Source: Candidatus Dojkabacteria bacterium (lineage in GTDB: Bacteria > Patescibacteriota > Dojkabacteria > SC72). From it: a stretch of DNA of 64,000 nt. The position numbers were made by a program, and so were the translations under genes. A model generated the notes under the pieces. That model saw only the letters and a list, made by a program, of their open reading frames with translations. It was not told where the DNA came from and did no database searches. This document shows positions 14,466 to 62,815 of the stretch, piece after piece; position 1 is the stretch's first letter, and every line of letters starts with the position of its first letter. The DNA is taken from assembly GCA_050950145.1 (NCBI GenBank), contig JBMNHB010000001.1, positions 53,136 to 117,135 on the forward strand. The letters run 5' to 3'.

Positions 14466-14496
14466 GCTTGAATTTTTCTTTCAAATTGTGTTACAA

Positions 14497-14523
14497 TTAG
14501 CAATCACTAATTTTATCTGCTAG
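14497..14523 (+). promoter_or_regulatory. Reduced CIRCE-like operator (TTAGCA-N15-TGCTAG) upstream of groES
   Basis: ttagca at 14497-14502, 15-nt spacer, tgctag at 14518-14523; 6 nt before the groES ATG. Confidence 0.5.
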
Positions 14524-14529
14524 ATACAT

Positions 14530-14829
14530 ATGTCAAAAGATATAAAAATCACGCCCCTAGGAAATAGAGTACTGGTAACACCAGACAAGATTGATGAGAA
14601 AACATCAGGAGGATTAGTTCTTCCACCTTCATCAACAGAAGATCAGAAACCTGAAACAGGTACAATTGCTAAATTAGGTGTAGGTAAGGTCAAAGGTAAG
14701 GATGTTTCCTTTGATGTTAGCGTAGGAGATAGAGTATATTTCAAAAAATATTCACCAGATGAATTAGAAGTAGATGGAGAGAAATATCTTCTTCTTGAAG
14801 CTAGTGATATTTTAGCAGTTATCAAATAA
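14530..14829 (+). CDS. groES: Co-chaperonin GroES
   Basis: 99 aa Cpn10 (ITPLGNRVLV...). Confidence 0.95.
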   Translation: MSKDIKITPLGNRVLVTPDKIDEKTSGGLVLPPSSTEDQKPETGTIAKLGVGKVKGKDVSFDVSVGDRVYFKKYSPDELEVDGEKYLLLEASDILAVIK

Positions 14830-14838
14830 TTGAATTAA

Positions 14839-16479
<1,641 letters not shown>

Positions 16480-16502: not shown

Positions 16503-17027
16503 CTAAACGAACCTTACCTCTTGTGCTAGTACTTTTCCAATAATATCTCTACTGTTTCTTCTGTATTTAACAATCTCTAAGTTGCCGTTATCATTAATTA
16601 AAACAGTATCACCAATCTCATACTTACTATTTGGAGAAATATATACTACTCCATTACTTCCATCAACAATATTCATATCAACAGCAAATGTATTAATATC
16701 CATCTGCAATACCCAATCAGGTGCAGGATAGAATAGATATGATTTTGTTTTAAGAAAATCATTATTATCAGGTATTGATGTATAGTAAGGAATTTTGTTA
16801 GTAGAATAGTTATCTACTTGAGATGAAGAATCTCTAAGTAAATCTCTAGGATCAATATTAAGAGCATCTGCTAAATTATTCAATTGCTTAAGTGGAGAAC
16901 TCTCTCCTCTTTCATATCTAGAAATCATCTCCCAAGTCTTACCTATCTTGTCTCCTAATTCCCTCTGTGTTAACTTTTTTCTTTCTCTGTATATTTTAAT
17001 ATTCTCTCCAATATATTTATTGTTCAT
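16503..17027 (-). CDS. LexA-like repressor: XRE-family HTH plus S24 peptidase-like C-terminal domain
   Basis: N-terminal HTH (KLTQRELGDKIGKTWEMISRYERG); C-terminal S24-like beta domain keeps the Lys (EIVKYRR), but the catalytic Ser position aligns to AVDM, a possible non-cleaving variant. Confidence 0.6.
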   Translation of the reverse strand: MNNKYIGENIKIYRERKKLTQRELGDKIGKTWEMISRYERGESSPLKQLNNLADALNIDPRDLLRDSSSQVDNYSTNKIPYYTSIPDNNDFLKTKSYLFYPAPDWVLQMDINTFAVDMNIVDGSNGVVYISPNSKYEIGDTVLINDNGNLEIVKYRRNSRDIIGKVLAQEVRFV

Positions 17028-17042
17028 ATATATAGATTCTAA

Positions 17043-17060
17043 TTACATATTAATGTAGTT
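17043..17060 (+). promoter_or_regulatory. Candidate operator palindrome (TACAT-N4-ATGTA) in the divergent lexA-like/dinD intergenic region
   Basis: ttacatattaatgtag lies 16-33 nt upstream of the lexA-like start. Confidence 0.3.
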
Positions 17061-17332
17061 AGAATAGAAAAGAAGGTCATAGATATGAAATATAATTTCG
17101 TAATTGTAAGAATTTTGTAAGAAATGAAATAGATAATCTGTATATGGAAGCATTAAAAGAATTAGTAAAAGAAATAGATAGAATATATGGGAAAAAGAAG
17201 ATCAATAGAAGAGATTTAGAAAGATTGTTGAAGAAGTGTAGGAAGGTAAGAAAAACTTTATCCCGTTTTTAATCTGGATTTAATAATTTCTTGTTATATA
17301 TCTATATATCCTTAAATTTTTATCTAAAAATT

Positions 17333-18139
17333 ATGAAAGAAAATAACACAATCAAACTATTTCAAAACAAAAAGATACGAGTAGAGTGGAATAGTGAAAA
17401 AGAAGAATGGTTGTTCTCAATTGTAGATATCATAGGTGTTTTAACAGAGAGTCCAAATCCTAGAAATTACTGGAAAGTTTTGAAATTTAGGTTGCAAAAA
17501 GAGAATAGTCAGTTGGTTACAAATTGTAACCAACTGAAATTAAAATCATCTGACGGGAAATATTACAAAACAGATGTAGCGAATACAGAGCAGATTTTAA
17601 GAATCATACAATCAATACCTTCTCCAAAAGCAGAGCCTTTTAAATTATGGTTAGCACGGGTTGGTAAAGAACGAATAGATGAAACAATTGATCCAGAATT
17701 AACGATAGATAGAGCATTAAGAACTTATCAGAAAAAGGGATACAGTAAGGCATGGATAAATCAAAGATTACAATCTATTCAAGTAAGAAAAGAACTTACA
17801 GATGAATGGGAAGAAAGAGGTGTGAAGAGAGGTTTTGAGTTTGGAATCTTAACAGATGAGATAACTAAAGCTTGGTCTGACCTCACAACACGAAAATATA
17901 AAGAATTAAAAGGTTTAACAAAAGAAAACCTTAGAGACAATATGTCTACTATTGAAATAGTTCTGAATATGTTAGCAGAAGCATCAACAACAGAAATTTC
18001 CAAAGAAGTCCAACCAAAGAATTTTGATGAGAATAAAAAAGTAGCAAAGTTAGGAGGAAATGTTGCTGGAAATGCGAGAAAAGAAATAGAGAAGACAACA
18101 AAGAAGTCAATTATTACAAATAGAAAAACTCTTCAATAA
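17333..18139 (+). CDS. dinD: DNA-damage-inducible protein D homolog (Bro-N domain)
   Basis: N-terminal Bro-N-like segment (WLFSIVDIIGVL...NPRNYWK); C-terminal region collinear with E. coli DinD (..LKKNQKILDHMGSTELAANLF.. ~ ..LTKENLRDNMSTIEIVLNML..). Confidence 0.7.
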   Translation: MKENNTIKLFQNKKIRVEWNSEKEEWLFSIVDIIGVLTESPNPRNYWKVLKFRLQKENSQLVTNCNQLKLKSSDGKYYKTDVANTEQILRIIQSIPSPKAEPFKLWLARVGKERIDETIDPELTIDRALRTYQKKGYSKAWINQRLQSIQVRKELTDEWEERGVKRGFEFGILTDEITKAWSDLTTRKYKELKGLTKENLRDNMSTIEIVLNMLAEASTTEISKEVQPKNFDENKKVAKLGGNVAGNARKEIEKTTKKSIITNRKTLQ

Positions 18140-18140
18140 T

Positions 18141-18596
18141 CTAATACACAATCTTTAACCAATTTTCCTTCAACCATTTATCTGCTTCTTTCTCTTGATT
18201 TAACAGATCTCTTTTAGCTAATTCTTTTTTAATAACATTACCTTGATGTGGATGATCAAATTGTTTTTCTAGTGGAGATTGAAAACCATGAGTATAGTGG
18301 CACAATTCATGTGCAATAGTTGCTCTAATTACAAATTCTGGAACAATCTCATTCTGAAAATATCTAGTAACTGTAATAACTGTAACACTCTTCTCATCCT
18401 GAACTTCTAGTTCCTCTCTTCTTTTTTTCATCAAACCCTTTATCTTTGTATATCTATTTGCTAATTTAATACTTCCTAGCTGTCTTTTAGAATACTTACC
18501 AAACTTAATAACTACTAGATTCTTTCTTGGAACATCACAAAAATGGTTATCCCATAAATCATACAAAATGTTTTCTAAATACTTATTATCTCTCAT
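18141..18596 (-). CDS. SprT-like / DUF45-type zinc metallopeptidase (HExxH)
   Basis: HELCHYTHG motif with upstream SprT-like pattern (ILYDLWDNHF...VVIKFGKYSKRQLGSIKL). Confidence 0.5.
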   Translation of the reverse strand: MRDNKYLENILYDLWDNHFCDVPRKNLVVIKFGKYSKRQLGSIKLANRYTKIKGLMKKRREELEVQDEKSVTVITVTRYFQNEIVPEFVIRATIAHELCHYTHGFQSPLEKQFDHPHQGNVIKKELAKRDLLNQEKEADKWLKENWLKIVY

Positions 18597-27354: not shown

Positions 27355-27621
27355 TTATACACCTTTAAAAGGATTTTTTAGTTGTAATGCAGATATAGCT
27401 CTTGATATTTGTGGGTTTTTTACTGATTTTGCTATATTAGATCTGTAATTACTTTTCTCTTCTGCTTTAAGTAATTGTTCTAAATCCGAACTTTTGGCTT
27501 CTTCTGTTAATGATTTTGTATCAACAGCTTGTGTTACAAGATATAGTTCTTCTTGTATTTTTTCAGGTTCTTTTTTAGTTGTTTTTTTATTAAAGAAACT
27601 AAACATTTTTATCTTCTTCAT
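27355..27621 (-). CDS. Small hypothetical protein, last gene of the VirB4 operon
   Basis: 88-aa ORF overlapping the virB4 3' end by 23 nt. Confidence 0.25.
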   Translation of the reverse strand: MKKIKMFSFFNKKTTKKEPEKIQEELYLVTQAVDTKSLTEEAKSSDLEQLLKAEEKSNYRSNIAKSVKNPQISRAISALQLKNPFKGV

Positions 27622-30010
27622 TAGGGTAACTTTCTGTATAGCCCTGTGGTGTTAAATGTTTCTTACCTTTTTGTATATCTTTCCTAGAACTCACAACTTG
27701 TCCTGTTAGGGTCTTTTGACTCAACTCATCTATGAATGTCTTTTGACTTTTATATTTATCTGGATTTATCACCTTTTCTTGTTCAACTAACCTTTTTTCT
27801 AACTCTTCTTGATATTTTATTCTTTCATCCAAGAGCATCTCTCTCTGTTTTTCTTTAGCCTCTATAGCTTCCATGATAATTTCGCTTTCTCTTGTACTAC
27901 TATCTCGTATAGGTTGTTGTACTGCTGGAGGATCATATATTTGAGCTAATTCTTGAACTGTTCTTGTGTCTGTTATACCTTCTTTTTCTTTGAGTCTTTC
28001 TAAATCTTTAGGGTCAGATGTAATAATTTCATGCTCAGCAACACTTGATAATACTTGAATACCAACATGGTTTTGTCCTGCAAAAAATAATCCTTGTCCT
28101 TTATCACAGTTTAATAGGTAATTTCTTTCTCCATCTGATAAGTTGAAAACTTTTTGTAGTAGTTCAACAGCAGAAGGGCTTTGTTTCATTAGCATTTGTA
28201 TTGAAGAGTTAGAGATAATTGCTTTTCCCATTTCATTTCCTAAGAAATCTGCAACATCTTGTGTAATTGTTGATAACCCTAGATAATATTTTCTAGCTCT
28301 TTTAGCAATAGTGTACATAAATTTAGCTGAATCCTCCGATTGCATCATATACCAAGCTTCATCAACAATTAATAATCTTCTTTTTCTATCTTTTCTAATT
28401 CTTGTCCAGATAAAGTCCAACATTAGGTACATAGCTAGTGGTTTTAGTTCATCCTGTAAATCTCTGATACTGAATACTGTGAATGGATTATTAATCTCAA
28501 AGTTACTTGCTTCATTAAATACTCCTGCACCACTTCCTATAATGTATTTTTCAAGCCTTCTTGCTAAACCATGTGCTTCTGTTTCAGCCATACCTTTAAG
28601 GACTTTGTATAAATCTTCAAGTAAAGGAGGTGTTTTGGTCTGAGTTTTAACATCAAATGTTATACCTTTTTCTTTGTATGTCAGAGATAAAGCTCTATCT
28701 AATATAGAATCTTCAATATTTGTTATTCCTTCAAATAGTACTTTGAAAAACCCATGAAGTGATAATAGTTTCATTCTTAACTCATCATCTCCTTCTTCTG
28801 TTACTCCTGAAAGTTCAAAAGGATTCATTTTGTGTCCCTTATCTTGTGAGAAAGAGATATAAGCTCCATTAACAGCTTTTGCTAAATTCTCATACTCTCT
28901 TTCTGGGTCAATTATGATAATCTCGGTTCCTAGCATTAAACTTCTAATAGCTTCAAGTTTAACGAAGTAACTTTTTCCTGCACCAGATTTTGCAAATATT
29001 ACTGCATTTGCATTTTCTAATTCAAACCTATCAAATACAATCAAACTCTTGTTGTGCATATTTAATCCATACATAATCCCATGATCCATTGTTAATTCCG
29101 AAGTAACAAATGGAAAAGTAGTAGCTAATGAAGTAGTATCCATATTTCTAGTTATGAAGAGGTTGTCTATTCCTAATGGTTGTGTACTTATGAATGCTTG
29201 TTCTTGTTGTAAGGTTGCAGGTTTAGCTGTTACATTCATTGCTGCAAATGTAGATATGACATTTCTTGATATCTTTTCCAATTCTTCTTTGTTGTTAGCA
29301 TAGAGGGTTACATACATGGAGAAATGGAAGAATTTCTCTGTTCCTTCTGCAATAGAGTCTTGTAACATTTGTGCGTCTGAGAGAGCAACTTTAAGTGATG
29401 GATCTATGACTTTTCTATCCTCCATCTGAGTGTAGAGTGTAGCTTCCATCTCACCTATCTTCTTTTTTAATTTTTCTAGAATGGTTTTAGAATCTACTGG
29501 ATAGTAGAATGTACTAATTCTTAATGAGTGCTCAAAGTTGATAATAGGAGATAACCAGTTAGGTCCTACGAATCTGGGATACCCACTTACGAATAGTGTT
29601 CTAAAGTAATATCCTCCCATCTGCAAATGAGTGAAATCAATTTCCATATCAATAGGGGCGAGTAAGTCCTGCATTGACATCTTTGTATCAACACCAATAC
29701 TACTATCAATACTTTGTACTTCTTCTTTAGGTACTTCTTGTACCTTATCTTCTTCTTTCTTTTCCTTACTTTTTTTGTTTTTTCCAGTGATTATGTCTAA
29801 TAGCTGAAATATAGGGTTAACCTTTTTCTTCTTCTCTTCATTTGTGTCTACAAACTCCTCTATTGGAACAAATGGTTTATCCATCTTATCACTAGGTTCT
29901 ACCTTTATCTGTTCTTTAAAGGTAGTATACTTCTCCTGTGCTGTTTGTAGCTTTTTTTGTCTTTCCATCATCATATTGCTAGTTTTACTTGTAATATTGT
30001 TGTTTTCCAT
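27599..30010 (-). CDS. virB4: Type IV secretion/conjugation ATPase, VirB4/TrbE/CagE family (Gram-positive TcpF/PrgJ-like)
   Basis: YFRTLFVSGYPRFV...WL pattern; Walker A AKSGAGKSY; NPF; Walker B LLIVDEAWYMM; RKYYLGLSTITQDVADF. K/E-rich ~110 aa N-terminal linker and ~130 aa coiled-coil C-terminal extension. Confidence 0.85.
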   Translation of the reverse strand: MENNNITSKTSNMMMERQKKLQTAQEKYTTFKEQIKVEPSDKMDKPFVPIEEFVDTNEEKKKKVNPIFQLLDIITGKNKKSKEKKEEDKVQEVPKEEVQSIDSSIGVDTKMSMQDLLAPIDMEIDFTHLQMGGYYFRTLFVSGYPRFVGPNWLSPIINFEHSLRISTFYYPVDSKTILEKLKKKIGEMEATLYTQMEDRKVIDPSLKVALSDAQMLQDSIAEGTEKFFHFSMYVTLYANNKEELEKISRNVISTFAAMNVTAKPATLQQEQAFISTQPLGIDNLFITRNMDTTSLATTFPFVTSELTMDHGIMYGLNMHNKSLIVFDRFELENANAVIFAKSGAGKSYFVKLEAIRSLMLGTEIIIIDPEREYENLAKAVNGAYISFSQDKGHKMNPFELSGVTEEGDDELRMKLLSLHGFFKVLFEGITNIEDSILDRALSLTYKEKGITFDVKTQTKTPPLLEDLYKVLKGMAETEAHGLARRLEKYIIGSGAGVFNEASNFEINNPFTVFSIRDLQDELKPLAMYLMLDFIWTRIRKDRKRRLLIVDEAWYMMQSEDSAKFMYTIAKRARKYYLGLSTITQDVADFLGNEMGKAIISNSSIQMLMKQSPSAVELLQKVFNLSDGERNYLLNCDKGQGLFFAGQNHVGIQVLSSVAEHEIITSDPKDLERLKEKEGITDTRTVQELAQIYDPPAVQQPIRDSSTRESEIIMEAIEAKEKQREMLLDERIKYQEELEKRLVEQEKVINPDKYKSQKTFIDELSQKTLTGQVVSSRKDIQKGKKHLTPQGYTESYPNEEDKNV

Positions 30011-61800: not shown

Positions 61801-62214
61801 TTACTTGATTTGGGATATGTTTGTTACTATTTTAATCTTAGAAGGTATTGCCTTCTTTATCTTTTCAAAATCTTTTTTATCTCTTGTTAGGATGTAATCA
61901 CAATTGTTTTCTATGGCTGTTAGATATTGCAATGAATCCTCGTAATCAGGTGATATATGTTTTGTGGCATCTATAATAATTTTACTTGTTAGTGGTAGTA
62001 TATTCATTGTGGATATAATTTCTGAGAATCTTAAAAACTCTTCAGAATCCATCTTTATCTTGAAAACATATAGTACAACTGGAACGCTTAAAGCTGATAT
62101 ACAAATAATTGGAAAGTACTCAGCATCAATTAACTGTTCTACACCACTATCATATTGTGTCCTTTCTCCTACTAAATCCGCTAATATGTTTGTGTCTAAG
62201 AATATCTTTTTCAT
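61801..62214 (-). CDS. vapC: PIN-domain toxin VapC
   Basis: IFLDTNIL N-terminus, conserved acidic residues, ILTRDKKDF. Confidence 0.8.
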   Translation of the reverse strand: MKKIFLDTNILADLVGERTQYDSGVEQLIDAEYFPIICISALSVPVVLYVFKIKMDSEEFLRFSEIISTMNILPLTSKIIIDATKHISPDYEDSLQYLTAIENNCDYILTRDKKDFEKIKKAIPSKIKIVTNISQIK

Positions 62215-62504
62215 TTTCTATACTTTTCAATCATAATTTTCTTAAATTCTTCATTTGCATCAATATTCTTGTGTTTCTGTGTGGCAAGATGCCCTAGAGG
62301 GAGTTGCAAGGCTTTTCTCATCTGTTCTCTTCTAATTTCTTGTTTGCTCTCTATCTTGACCTCATATTGTTCTGGGATATAGTAGCCAATGGGAATACCT
62401 TTCTCATATATTCTCACCAATGAATCCTTTAACTGTGTTAGATTGTGTCTAAAATCTCTTAGATTGATTTTTGTATATTCTTTGTTCTTCATGTTTTCCT
62501 TCAT
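62211..62504 (-). CDS. Phd/YefM-type antitoxin candidate (VapB partner)
   Basis: 4-nt overlap with the vapC start; N-terminal TKINLRDFRHNLTQLKDSL...PIGYYIPEQYE resembles Phd/YefM fold. Confidence 0.5.
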   Translation of the reverse strand: MKENMKNKEYTKINLRDFRHNLTQLKDSLVRIYEKGIPIGYYIPEQYEVKIESKQEIRREQMRKALQLPLGHLATQKHKNIDANEEFKKIMIEKYRK

Positions 62505-62815
62505 ACTTAAATTATTTCATATAGTTCTTACAAAATTCTTACTATTTAGAACTTTGTTTTTCACCATACTTTTTCTCTAATAGTTTTCTGTATTCTTTCT
62601 TGTAGTCAAAATTGTCTTTGTTTTTAACTTTGAGAATACCGATTATGCCTTGTAAGATTTCTCTGTCTTTTTTTCTTGTATTTCTCTTTCTCATGTTAAA
62701 CATAAGTTTAACATCTTTGTATTTAAATTACAATATTGAAAAATTTTTCTTACTAACTTGACATCTTACAGTTATTTTTGTTTGATATAAGTATATAAAG
62801 TTAATATATTTTTAT

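Follow-up and report, generated by a model that had tools for sequence, protein, structure and literature searches.

A composite locus in Candidatus Dojkabacteria: a conserved gene pair for a predicted XRE repressor and a putative zincin protease, with a species-level insertion of a DinD-family gene

The window analyzed here is a 64,000-nucleotide (nt) stretch of contig JBMNHB010000001.1 (assembly GCA_050950145.1, positions 53,136 to 117,135) from a Candidatus Dojkabacteria bacterium, and the locus under study occupies its positions 16503 to 18596. It carries genes for an XRE-type repressor, here called REP, a very small basic protein, a protein of the Bro-N/DinD family, and a SprT-like putative metalloprotease of the zincin type. 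An earlier note, made from the DNA sequence, had presented these four genes as a compact SOS-like module with a LexA-like repressor divergent from a dinD homolog. The four open reading frames (ORFs) were confirmed, and comparison with related genomes revealed the locus to be a composite. The protease gene and the REP gene form an old, vertically inherited Dojkabacteria unit located between groESL and an ABC-transporter/folD/glyA/thyX block, and the Bro-N gene is a species-level insertion into this resident unit. The best explanation overall, in which we place somewhat more belief than doubt, is an autoregulated XRE repressor with an adjacent zincin, in a composite locus with a recent Bro-N insertion. 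The locus is an uncharacterized, lineage-restricted variant of the repressor-plus-protease theme, combined with the recent insertion of a DinD-family defense-candidate gene. Its coding features are as follows.

16503-17027, minus strand: REP, a repressor of 174 residues with a helix-turn-helix (HTH) and a C-terminal beta domain
17144-17272, plus strand: small basic helical ORF of 42 residues, divergent from REP
17273-18140, plus strand: segment present only in this species, comprising a 60-nt leader and the Bro-N gene, flanked by the small ORF and the 3' end of the SprT-like gene
17333-18139, plus strand: Bro-N/DinD-family gene, 268 residues from its ATG (with TTG 17291 as the start in the mechanical ORF list)
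18141-18596, minus strand: SprT-like/minigluzincin zincin gene, 151 residues, with the motif HELCH

A scan of species-representative genomes yielded 80 loci, and all module proteins were run by tblastn against 87 loci. The nearest relatives of the proteins encoded in the locus are found in metagenome-assembled genomes of Candidatus Dojkabacteria (WS6, Patescibacteria), which are ultra-small bacteria. Essentially all Dojkabacteria loci display the same gene order, with the ABC transporter gene pointing left, the SprT-like gene and REP pointing right, and groEL pointing left. The SprT-like gene is located immediately upstream of REP on the same strand in 52 of the 55 loci with a full-length REP orthologue (34 to 80% identity). 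The window's species departs from this order in that Bro-N separates the two genes, and there are two apparent losses. More than 50 species keep the module at the same chromosomal position, flanked by housekeeping genes, and in one locus (L069) the protease-REP pair is kept in a neighborhood that lacks groEL and the ABC gene. The Bro-N gene is a species-level insertion, because tblastn detected it here in no contigs other than L001, L002, and L008, which represent the window's species with 98 to 100% identity. The inserted segment of approximately 870 base pairs (bp) extends from the stop codon of the small ORF to 1 nt short of the stop codon of the protease gene, and relatives possess a spacer of either 190 to 300 bp or 55 to 75 bp at this site instead. 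As none of the other species examined has the dinD-like gene at the orthologous locus, the divergent repressor/dinD appearance is an insertion artifact rather than a conserved regulon unit, and the SOS-like module of the earlier note was not upheld. Note that many records with a Dojkabacteria-type locus (L008, L014 to L019, and others) are titled "uncultured Candidatus Saccharibacteria"; compared with the protein-level affiliation, these titles appear to be mislabeled.

REP is predicted to consist of an XRE/P22-C2-like HTH domain (residues ~1 to 65), a variable linker (~65 to 77), and a C-terminal beta domain (~78 to 174), and thus shares with LexA, λ CI, and UmuD the succession of a DNA-binding N-terminal domain, a flexible linker, and a C-terminal beta domain. 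Its assignment as an HTH-XRE repressor was corroborated by a match to Pfam HTH_3 (E=1.9e-10), which places the HTH in the XRE, or Cro-CI, class. The closest solved relative is P22 C2 (~35% identity), and residues 3 to 159 match phrog_4, "transcriptional repressor", with E=3.6e-14. The S24 fold that had been proposed for the C-terminal domain is present in the AlphaFold model, which features a LexA/CI-like S24-type beta fold with λ repressor and LexA as the best full-length structural matches and 186 CI as a further one; by sequence, this domain gives no S24 signal at all. Specifically, it had no Pfam match at E≤1 and no NCBIfam match, and PF00717 (S24) is carried by 0 of the 120 REP homologues listed, while the positive controls LexA and λ CI were recovered with 1e-36 and 7e-29, respectively. 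A profile of the REP family comprising 35 sequences matched PDB sequences only in the HTH, and hhalign of the REP profile against LexA, UmuD, and λ CI gave a probability of 11% over 34 columns. When 1.84 billion representative proteins were searched with a HMMER profile of the C-terminal domain, only 64 matched, with no S24 peptidase among them; nearly all of these carry the domain C-terminally within a total length of ~160 to 226 residues, as in REP, and the rest are fragments. With Pfam, NCBIfam, PDB profile, hhalign, and HMMER profile all negative, the classification of REP as an S24 peptidase by sequence was rejected.

The earlier note had set the REP motif AVDM opposite GMSM of LexA and considered a Ser-to-Asp variant of the active site. 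This alignment is fixed by no method, and neither Asp there is conserved. Among 35 close relatives, the column of the AVDM Asp is occupied by D, E, N, S, A, T, or K, and D117, D122, and K154, which the weak hhalign match sets opposite LexA K156, all vary. In 52 cluster representatives of the C-terminal domain, P103 is the sole invariant residue, Y100, W105, and G164 are near-invariant, and no Ser, Lys, or Asp is invariant; the four conserved positions look structural or interface-forming rather than catalytic. No catalytic residue of any kind is thus conserved in either set. Likewise, no Ala-Gly or Cys-Gly cleavage site occurs in the REP family, the equivalent stretch reading F-T/D/V-S/K/E-I/L-P, and the conserved IPLF..IP precedes the C-terminal domain where LexA has LPLVGRVAAGEP. 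Judged from these alignments, the C-terminal domain of REP is a predicted dead cleavage domain and not a Ser-to-Asp variant; because a conserved nucleophile, general base, and cleavage site are all missing, REP should be unable to cleave itself in the manner of LexA. In contrast to LexA, λ CI, and UmuD, it possesses neither a Ser/Lys dyad nor an Ala-Gly site nor detectable sequence homology and is not to be filed as an S24 peptidase. The CI repressor of phage 186 is CI-shaped and does not cleave itself, and REP resembles it in having a dead cleavage domain. Unlike 186 CI and TP901-1 CI/MOR, REP is chromosomal, vertically inherited, and located outside a prophage, and its accompanying small ORF has no HTH or family match and is missing in a deep clade.

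For the 151-residue protein, the earlier designation as a SprT/DUF45-like HExxH protease was borne out by the HELCH motif and by a zincin fold in the structural model, whereas the match to Pfam SprT-like (PF10263) is weak (E=0.003; 17.8 bits, below the cut-off of 25.6). The residues H96-E97-L-C-H100, H103, H117, and E125 are invariant. With an HExxH motif, a third metal ligand, and a minimal zincin fold, the protein is modeled as a minimal zincin of the minigluzincin/SprT kind. The comparison figures were 10.3 for selecase (26% identity), 10.0 for projannalysin, 9.7 for proabylysin, and 9.5 for the SprT domain of Spartan, followed by CapP (7.5), Wss1 (7.4), and IrrE (5.8). Membership in M78/COG2856 (ImmA/IrrE) was tested and not found, and a profile of the protease against PDB sequences gave nothing significant. 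The family is confined to Dojkabacteria and features a Lys/Arg-rich insert at residues 46 to 70. With minigluzincins and SprT/Wss1/Spartan it shares the catalytic-core fold, the HExxH on the active-site helix, and, further downstream, an invariant Glu (E125) on the helix that follows; Wss1 and Spartan have been placed among the minigluzincins (PMC4559962). It differs from SprT, Wss1, and Spartan in having no Zn-ribbon or DNA-binding tail, in its subthreshold Pfam score, and in its restriction to one lineage. In the alignment of relatives, the Cys within HELCH is invariant and a second Cys at "HFCD" is largely conserved, cysteines which recall the cysteine-switch regulation described for Wss1 (PMC4559962).

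The region between REP and the small ORF contains the following elements.

17036-17065, no strand: imperfect palindrome ATTCTAATTACAT-ATTA-ATGTAGTTAGAAT, with 13-nt arms at 17036-17048 and 17053-17065 and a 4-nt spacer
17036-17041, minus strand: REP -10 box TAGAAT, 8 nt before the ATG
17064-17069, minus strand: TTCTAT box, conserved in 56 upstream regions, a possible operator half-site 22 nt upstream of the REP -10 box
17076-17089, no strand: weak dyad TTCATA-TC-TATGAC (family form TTCnTA-N2-TAnGAA), at -62 to -49 from the REP ATG
17104-17123, plus strand: two tandem copies of TTGTAAGAA with an 11-bp period, the first copy being a putative extended -10 (TGTAAGAAT) 20 nt before the ATG of the small ORF

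Across 56 distinct upstream regions, a TAnAAT -10 box is positioned 8 to 9 nt ahead of the REP ATG, and this conserved short distance suggests that the REP mRNA is leaderless or near-leaderless. The palindrome that had been reported over the repressor promoter is real and longer than originally described, with arms complementary at 12 of 13 positions (92%); its REP-proximal arm contains the REP -10 box. As a regulon motif, it was rejected. The 22-mer core of the palindrome occurs as a single copy in 64 kb, and the search for the shorter core TACAT-N4-ATGTA (at most one mismatch) gave 6 sites versus 4.6 expected within the window and hence no enrichment. The palindrome is not conserved in orthologous promoters either: these average 5 of 13, the background being 3.8, and values of 9 to 10 are confined to the nearest relatives. 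It fits a lineage-specific autoregulatory site rather than a regulon box. The dyad at -62 to -49 represents the best 6-2-6 register across 55 orthologues (mean of 3.75 of 6 versus 1.83 ± 0.39 for all registers) and is a weak candidate for a REP operator over the -35 region of the small ORF.

The tandem repeat is kept in relatives as TYACAAAA-N3-TYACAA, and its degenerate form was found at 5 sites in comparison to 0.84 expected, with another exact match inside an ORF. As a REP operator it was rejected, since it is more simply explained as an extended -10 promoter and its second copy precedes an unrelated antitoxin-like/PIN pair. This copy is the 20-mer TTCTTACAAAATTCTTACTA at 62525-62544, which differs at one position from the tandem repeat between REP and the small ORF; both are positioned 20 nt before an ATG. 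It is followed by a gene for a 97-residue protein without a family match (62211-62504, minus strand) and a PIN-domain gene (61801-62214, minus strand), which form a VapBC-like pair. TTCTTACAAAATTCTTACTA and the tandem repeat probably represent a shared extended -10 promoter type, and the genes behind them are possibly coregulated.

Nearly all loci with the 190- to 300-bp spacer contain a small ORF of 35 to 67 residues on the strand opposite to REP, starting 115 to 118 nt from the REP ATG. The encoded peptides follow a common Lys-rich helical pattern, ...Y.K...KK....D...LKK..K.I; the 42-residue product in the window had no match in family-library searches. A tblastn search with the 42-residue ORF found no match in relatives; conservation then became apparent when ORFs were extracted by position. 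In the deeper clade, where the gap between protease and REP is only 55 to 75 nt, no small ORF is present. The 42-residue ORF, which the earlier note had included in the cluster, can be regarded from its position and pattern as a real conserved gene in the window's clade.

The inserted gene encodes a protein with a Bro-N domain (Pfam, E=5.3e-10) that matches the PADLOC model PDC-S13 over its full length (E=3.5e-132; residues 1 to 266 on model positions 1 to 266 of 286) as well as phrog_15286 (E=4.6e-123). PDC-S13 is a defense candidate, in line with the description of PADLOC PDCs as candidates (PMC11514479); a literature search found no paper mentioning PDC-S13. At least 8,000 homologues with 70 to 77% identity occur in Dojkabacteria, Clostridia, Bacteroidota, and one member of the Nitrososphaerota (archaea), and the subfamily of the window protein shows 62 to 77% identity across phyla. 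In three loci from other phyla (L091, L092, and L093), the gene is solitary among housekeeping genes, next to rplS, proC, and hprK, and its GC content matches that of each host. This high identity across phyla, the solitary siting, and the host-matched GC content point to a horizontally mobile single gene under strong purifying selection. In L091 the Bro-N gene follows a tRNA-like sequence, and an HTH_3 gene is located just downstream in two of these three loci.

The relationship to DinD, which the earlier note had called clear, was overstated. Both proteins carry an N-terminal Bro-N domain, have ~270 residues, and share a homologous C-terminal part, and their genes contain a strong hairpin ~175 nt into the coding region; the BLASTP match to E. 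coli DinD has E=6e-5 and 24% identity and covers only the C-terminal 106 residues. With its Bro-N N terminus and DinD-type C-terminal region, the window protein is a distant member of the DinD family that belongs to a far more conserved subfamily. E. coli dinD is regulated by LexA. Nothing suggests LexA control of the window gene, and no canonical LexA homologue was found among the window ORFs.

Within the Bro-N gene, a conserved secondary structure was detected.

17509-17537, plus strand: hairpin with a perfect 13-bp stem and a 3-nt loop, in codons 59 to 69 (peptide S-QLVTNCNQL-K)

As RNA, this hairpin has a minimum free energy of -18.2 kcal/mol (z=-6.2). In 34 diverse homologues, 90% of the cells of the stem are paired, compared with 22 to 41% when the partners are slid, and 7 of the 13 pairs show changes on both sides. 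Double-change cells numbered 66, as opposed to 22.6 ± 4 in shuffles, and none of 500 shuffles reached as high a count. The compensatory changes alter both of the residues involved, as seen in QLVT.CNQL, ETVT.CHGL, QLLT.CQQL, ELTT.CSQL, EVAT.CSRL, and ETIT.CNGL; a synonymous Val change from GTT to GTG is paired with an Asn-to-His exchange opposite. Stem mismatches of the G-U type (14) and the A-C type (16) are equally common, and for this reason the structure may be either RNA or DNA, the mismatch types singling out neither strand nor molecule. In dinD of E. coli K-12, the sole inverted repeat of at least 9 nt is located at nt 174 to 205 (positions 2934 to 2965 of L003), at the same distance from the start codon. 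The hairpin, with stems of 10 to 15 bp and loops of 3 to 4 nt, was also noted among L091 to L173 and L174 to L183. Stems of 10 to 15 bp occur at this place in the DinD genes of Klebsiella, Neisseria, Bernardetia, Chondrinema, and Zymomonas and in a KilAC antirepressor gene of Propionimicrobium; three other genes examined do not have one there. In a MAFFT alignment, the DinD and PDC-S13 hairpins are 10 to 15 columns apart within a poorly aligned stretch, and their likeness consists in the same distance from the start codon, residue-level equivalence being uncertain. No Rfam match was obtained for the hairpin, a scan of the region giving only a chance snoRNA match (E=0.06), and no mention of it was found in the searchable literature. 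DinD/Bro-N genes thus carry a conserved, covarying, and previously unremarked hairpin ~175 nt into the coding region.

The wider surroundings of the locus are those of a housekeeping region.

14530-14829, plus strand: groES, upstream neighbor
14857-16479, plus strand: groEL, upstream neighbor

Beyond the zincin gene follow, in this order, an ABC transporter gene, folD, glyA, thyX, and dcd. The GC content of the window is low (~30 to 35%), without a compositional break at the module. A gene for a VirB4/TraC-like ATPase (803 residues; DUF87, P-loop_TraG) is situated ~9 kb downstream of the module at 27599-30010 on the minus strand (L001 gene table). Upstream of groES (14466-14529), a promoter-like TTGAAT-N17-TACAAT is followed by TTAGCAatc-N9-atcTGCTAg, which is arranged like a degenerate CIRCE (HrcA operator); the strict CIRCE consensus is absent from the window. 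A role of REP as heat-shock regulator of groESL was considered and rejected, as groES has its own promoter and a degenerate repeat with CIRCE geometry.

According to the explanation favored here, REP would have its own promoter, giving an mRNA with little or no leader, and its dead C-terminal domain would mediate dimerization or oligomerization, as in phage 186 CI. REP would repress its own promoter and the divergent promoter of the small ORF, with the palindrome over the REP -10 box as the likely autoregulatory site in the window's species. Inactivation would occur in trans, the most economical candidate for this step being the adjacent zincin, which might cut the exposed linker by analogy with ImmA/ImmR, IrrE/DdrO, and CapP/CapH. 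Bro-N, inserted downstream of the REP-facing promoter, may have come under REP control. For ImmR/ImmA, DdrO/IrrE (PprI), and CapH/CapP, derepression by repressor cleavage after DNA damage has been described (bioRxiv 10.1101/2022.04.27.489752; PMC10904395; PMC12828697; PMC10233336). The Dojkabacteria locus has in common with these systems an XRE repressor gene beside an HExxH metalloprotease gene (52/55 loci), and REP and the protease weakly match capH (E=1e-4) and capP (E=0.0024), respectively. In contrast to ImmR/ImmA and DdrO/IrrE, the protease is outside M78/COG2856, and the likeness to ImmR/ImmA pointed out in the earlier note holds as the best available mechanistic analogy and not as membership of the protease in the ImmA/IrrE family.

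Several observations weigh against this explanation. No operator is established, the palindrome being unconserved and the family-wide dyad weak (3.75/6). The AlphaFold2 model of the protease is unstable, with values of the predicted local distance difference test of 41 to 45 in three of the five models. The wider neighborhood (groESL, ABC, folD, glyA, and thyX) is also syntenic, and only L069 breaks this wider synteny; the adjacency of protease and repressor is consequently weaker evidence for a coupling than it appears. Near the more distant REP-like proteins (28 to 33% identity, L071 to L086), a hidden Markov model of the protease family detected no SprT-like gene, and L042 has lost the protease gene.

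The main rival explanation, which we regard as rather unlikely yet worth serious attention, is that the genes are unrelated neighbors. REP and the small ORF would then form a self-contained switch of two genes, comparable to CI/Cro, CI/MOR, or an antitoxin-like system, and the zincin would be a housekeeping protease that happens to lie beside them because gene order is frozen in this lineage. The entire 10-kb neighborhood retains its gene order, each lineage has a separate promoter for REP, and REP-like proteins exist without the protease, all as this explanation would have it. On the other hand, protease and REP remain paired in the deep clade, across a spacer of only 55 to 75 nt and without any small ORF, so that the small ORF is not a universal partner of REP. 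In addition, the pair survives the changed neighborhood of L069, and some means of inactivation is still required if the repressor's cleavage domain is dead.

A more far-reaching version of the favored explanation can be offered only tentatively. It would make the locus an undescribed protease-gated switch, in which a CI/LexA-shaped XRE repressor with a dead domain is cleaved upon stress or DNA damage by a SprT/minigluzincin zincin instead of an ImmA/IrrE (M78) peptidase and which, in the window's species, has captured a horizontally acquired DinD-family defense-candidate gene; the hairpin of this gene family, E. coli dinD included, would be functional and dictate the amino acid sequence.

That the locus is the immunity region of a domesticated or decayed prophage or mobile element, with REP as a CI-like, the small ORF as a Cro-like, Bro-N as an antirepressor, and the zincin as an ImmA-like component, appears improbable. 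Each part does have a phage counterpart (phrog_4 for REP and phrog_15286 for Bro-N), and Bro-N domains are present in annotated phage antirepressors. Against this stand the typical GC content, which matches the genome, and the position of the module, which is the same between housekeeping genes in more than 50 species, while Bro-N arrived separately from the rest of the module. Moreover, no tRNA gene was found in the 64-kb window and no integrase or att evidence around the module, which does not qualify as a prophage or integrative element.

The SOS-like unit, in which a self-cleaving LexA-type repressor with Asp in place of Ser would control dinD and a repair protease via a LexA-box-like palindrome, is by far the least credible explanation, as D117, D122, and the Lys equivalent to LexA K156 are unconserved even in close relatives, Ala-Gly at the LexA-equivalent cleavage position and an S24 sequence signal are missing, the dinD-like gene is absent at the locus in all other species examined, and the palindrome is single-copy and unconserved. 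It can draw on the HTH and LexA/CI-like architecture of the REP model, on the overlap of the palindrome with the repressor promoter, and on the established LexA regulation of E. coli dinD. SprT, Spartan, and Wss1 are further known from eukaryotic DNA-protein cross-link repair (PMC4559962).

A mobile single gene beside a resident repressor can mimic a regulon unit, which calls for caution when raw sequence is read. If the hairpin is functional as suggested, it would be a rare case of a protein sequence subordinate to nucleic-acid structure, in a gene family that comprises thousands of defense candidates along with a well-known SOS gene of E. coli, and would provide an experimental handle on the function or movement of these genes. 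Patescibacteria have tiny genomes and very few characterized regulators. If the coupling of REP and the zincin holds true, the logic of cleaving the XRE repressor would have evolved two or more times on the basis of unrelated zincins, and the lineage-wide pair beside groESL would be one of the few recognizable stress switches in Patescibacteria.

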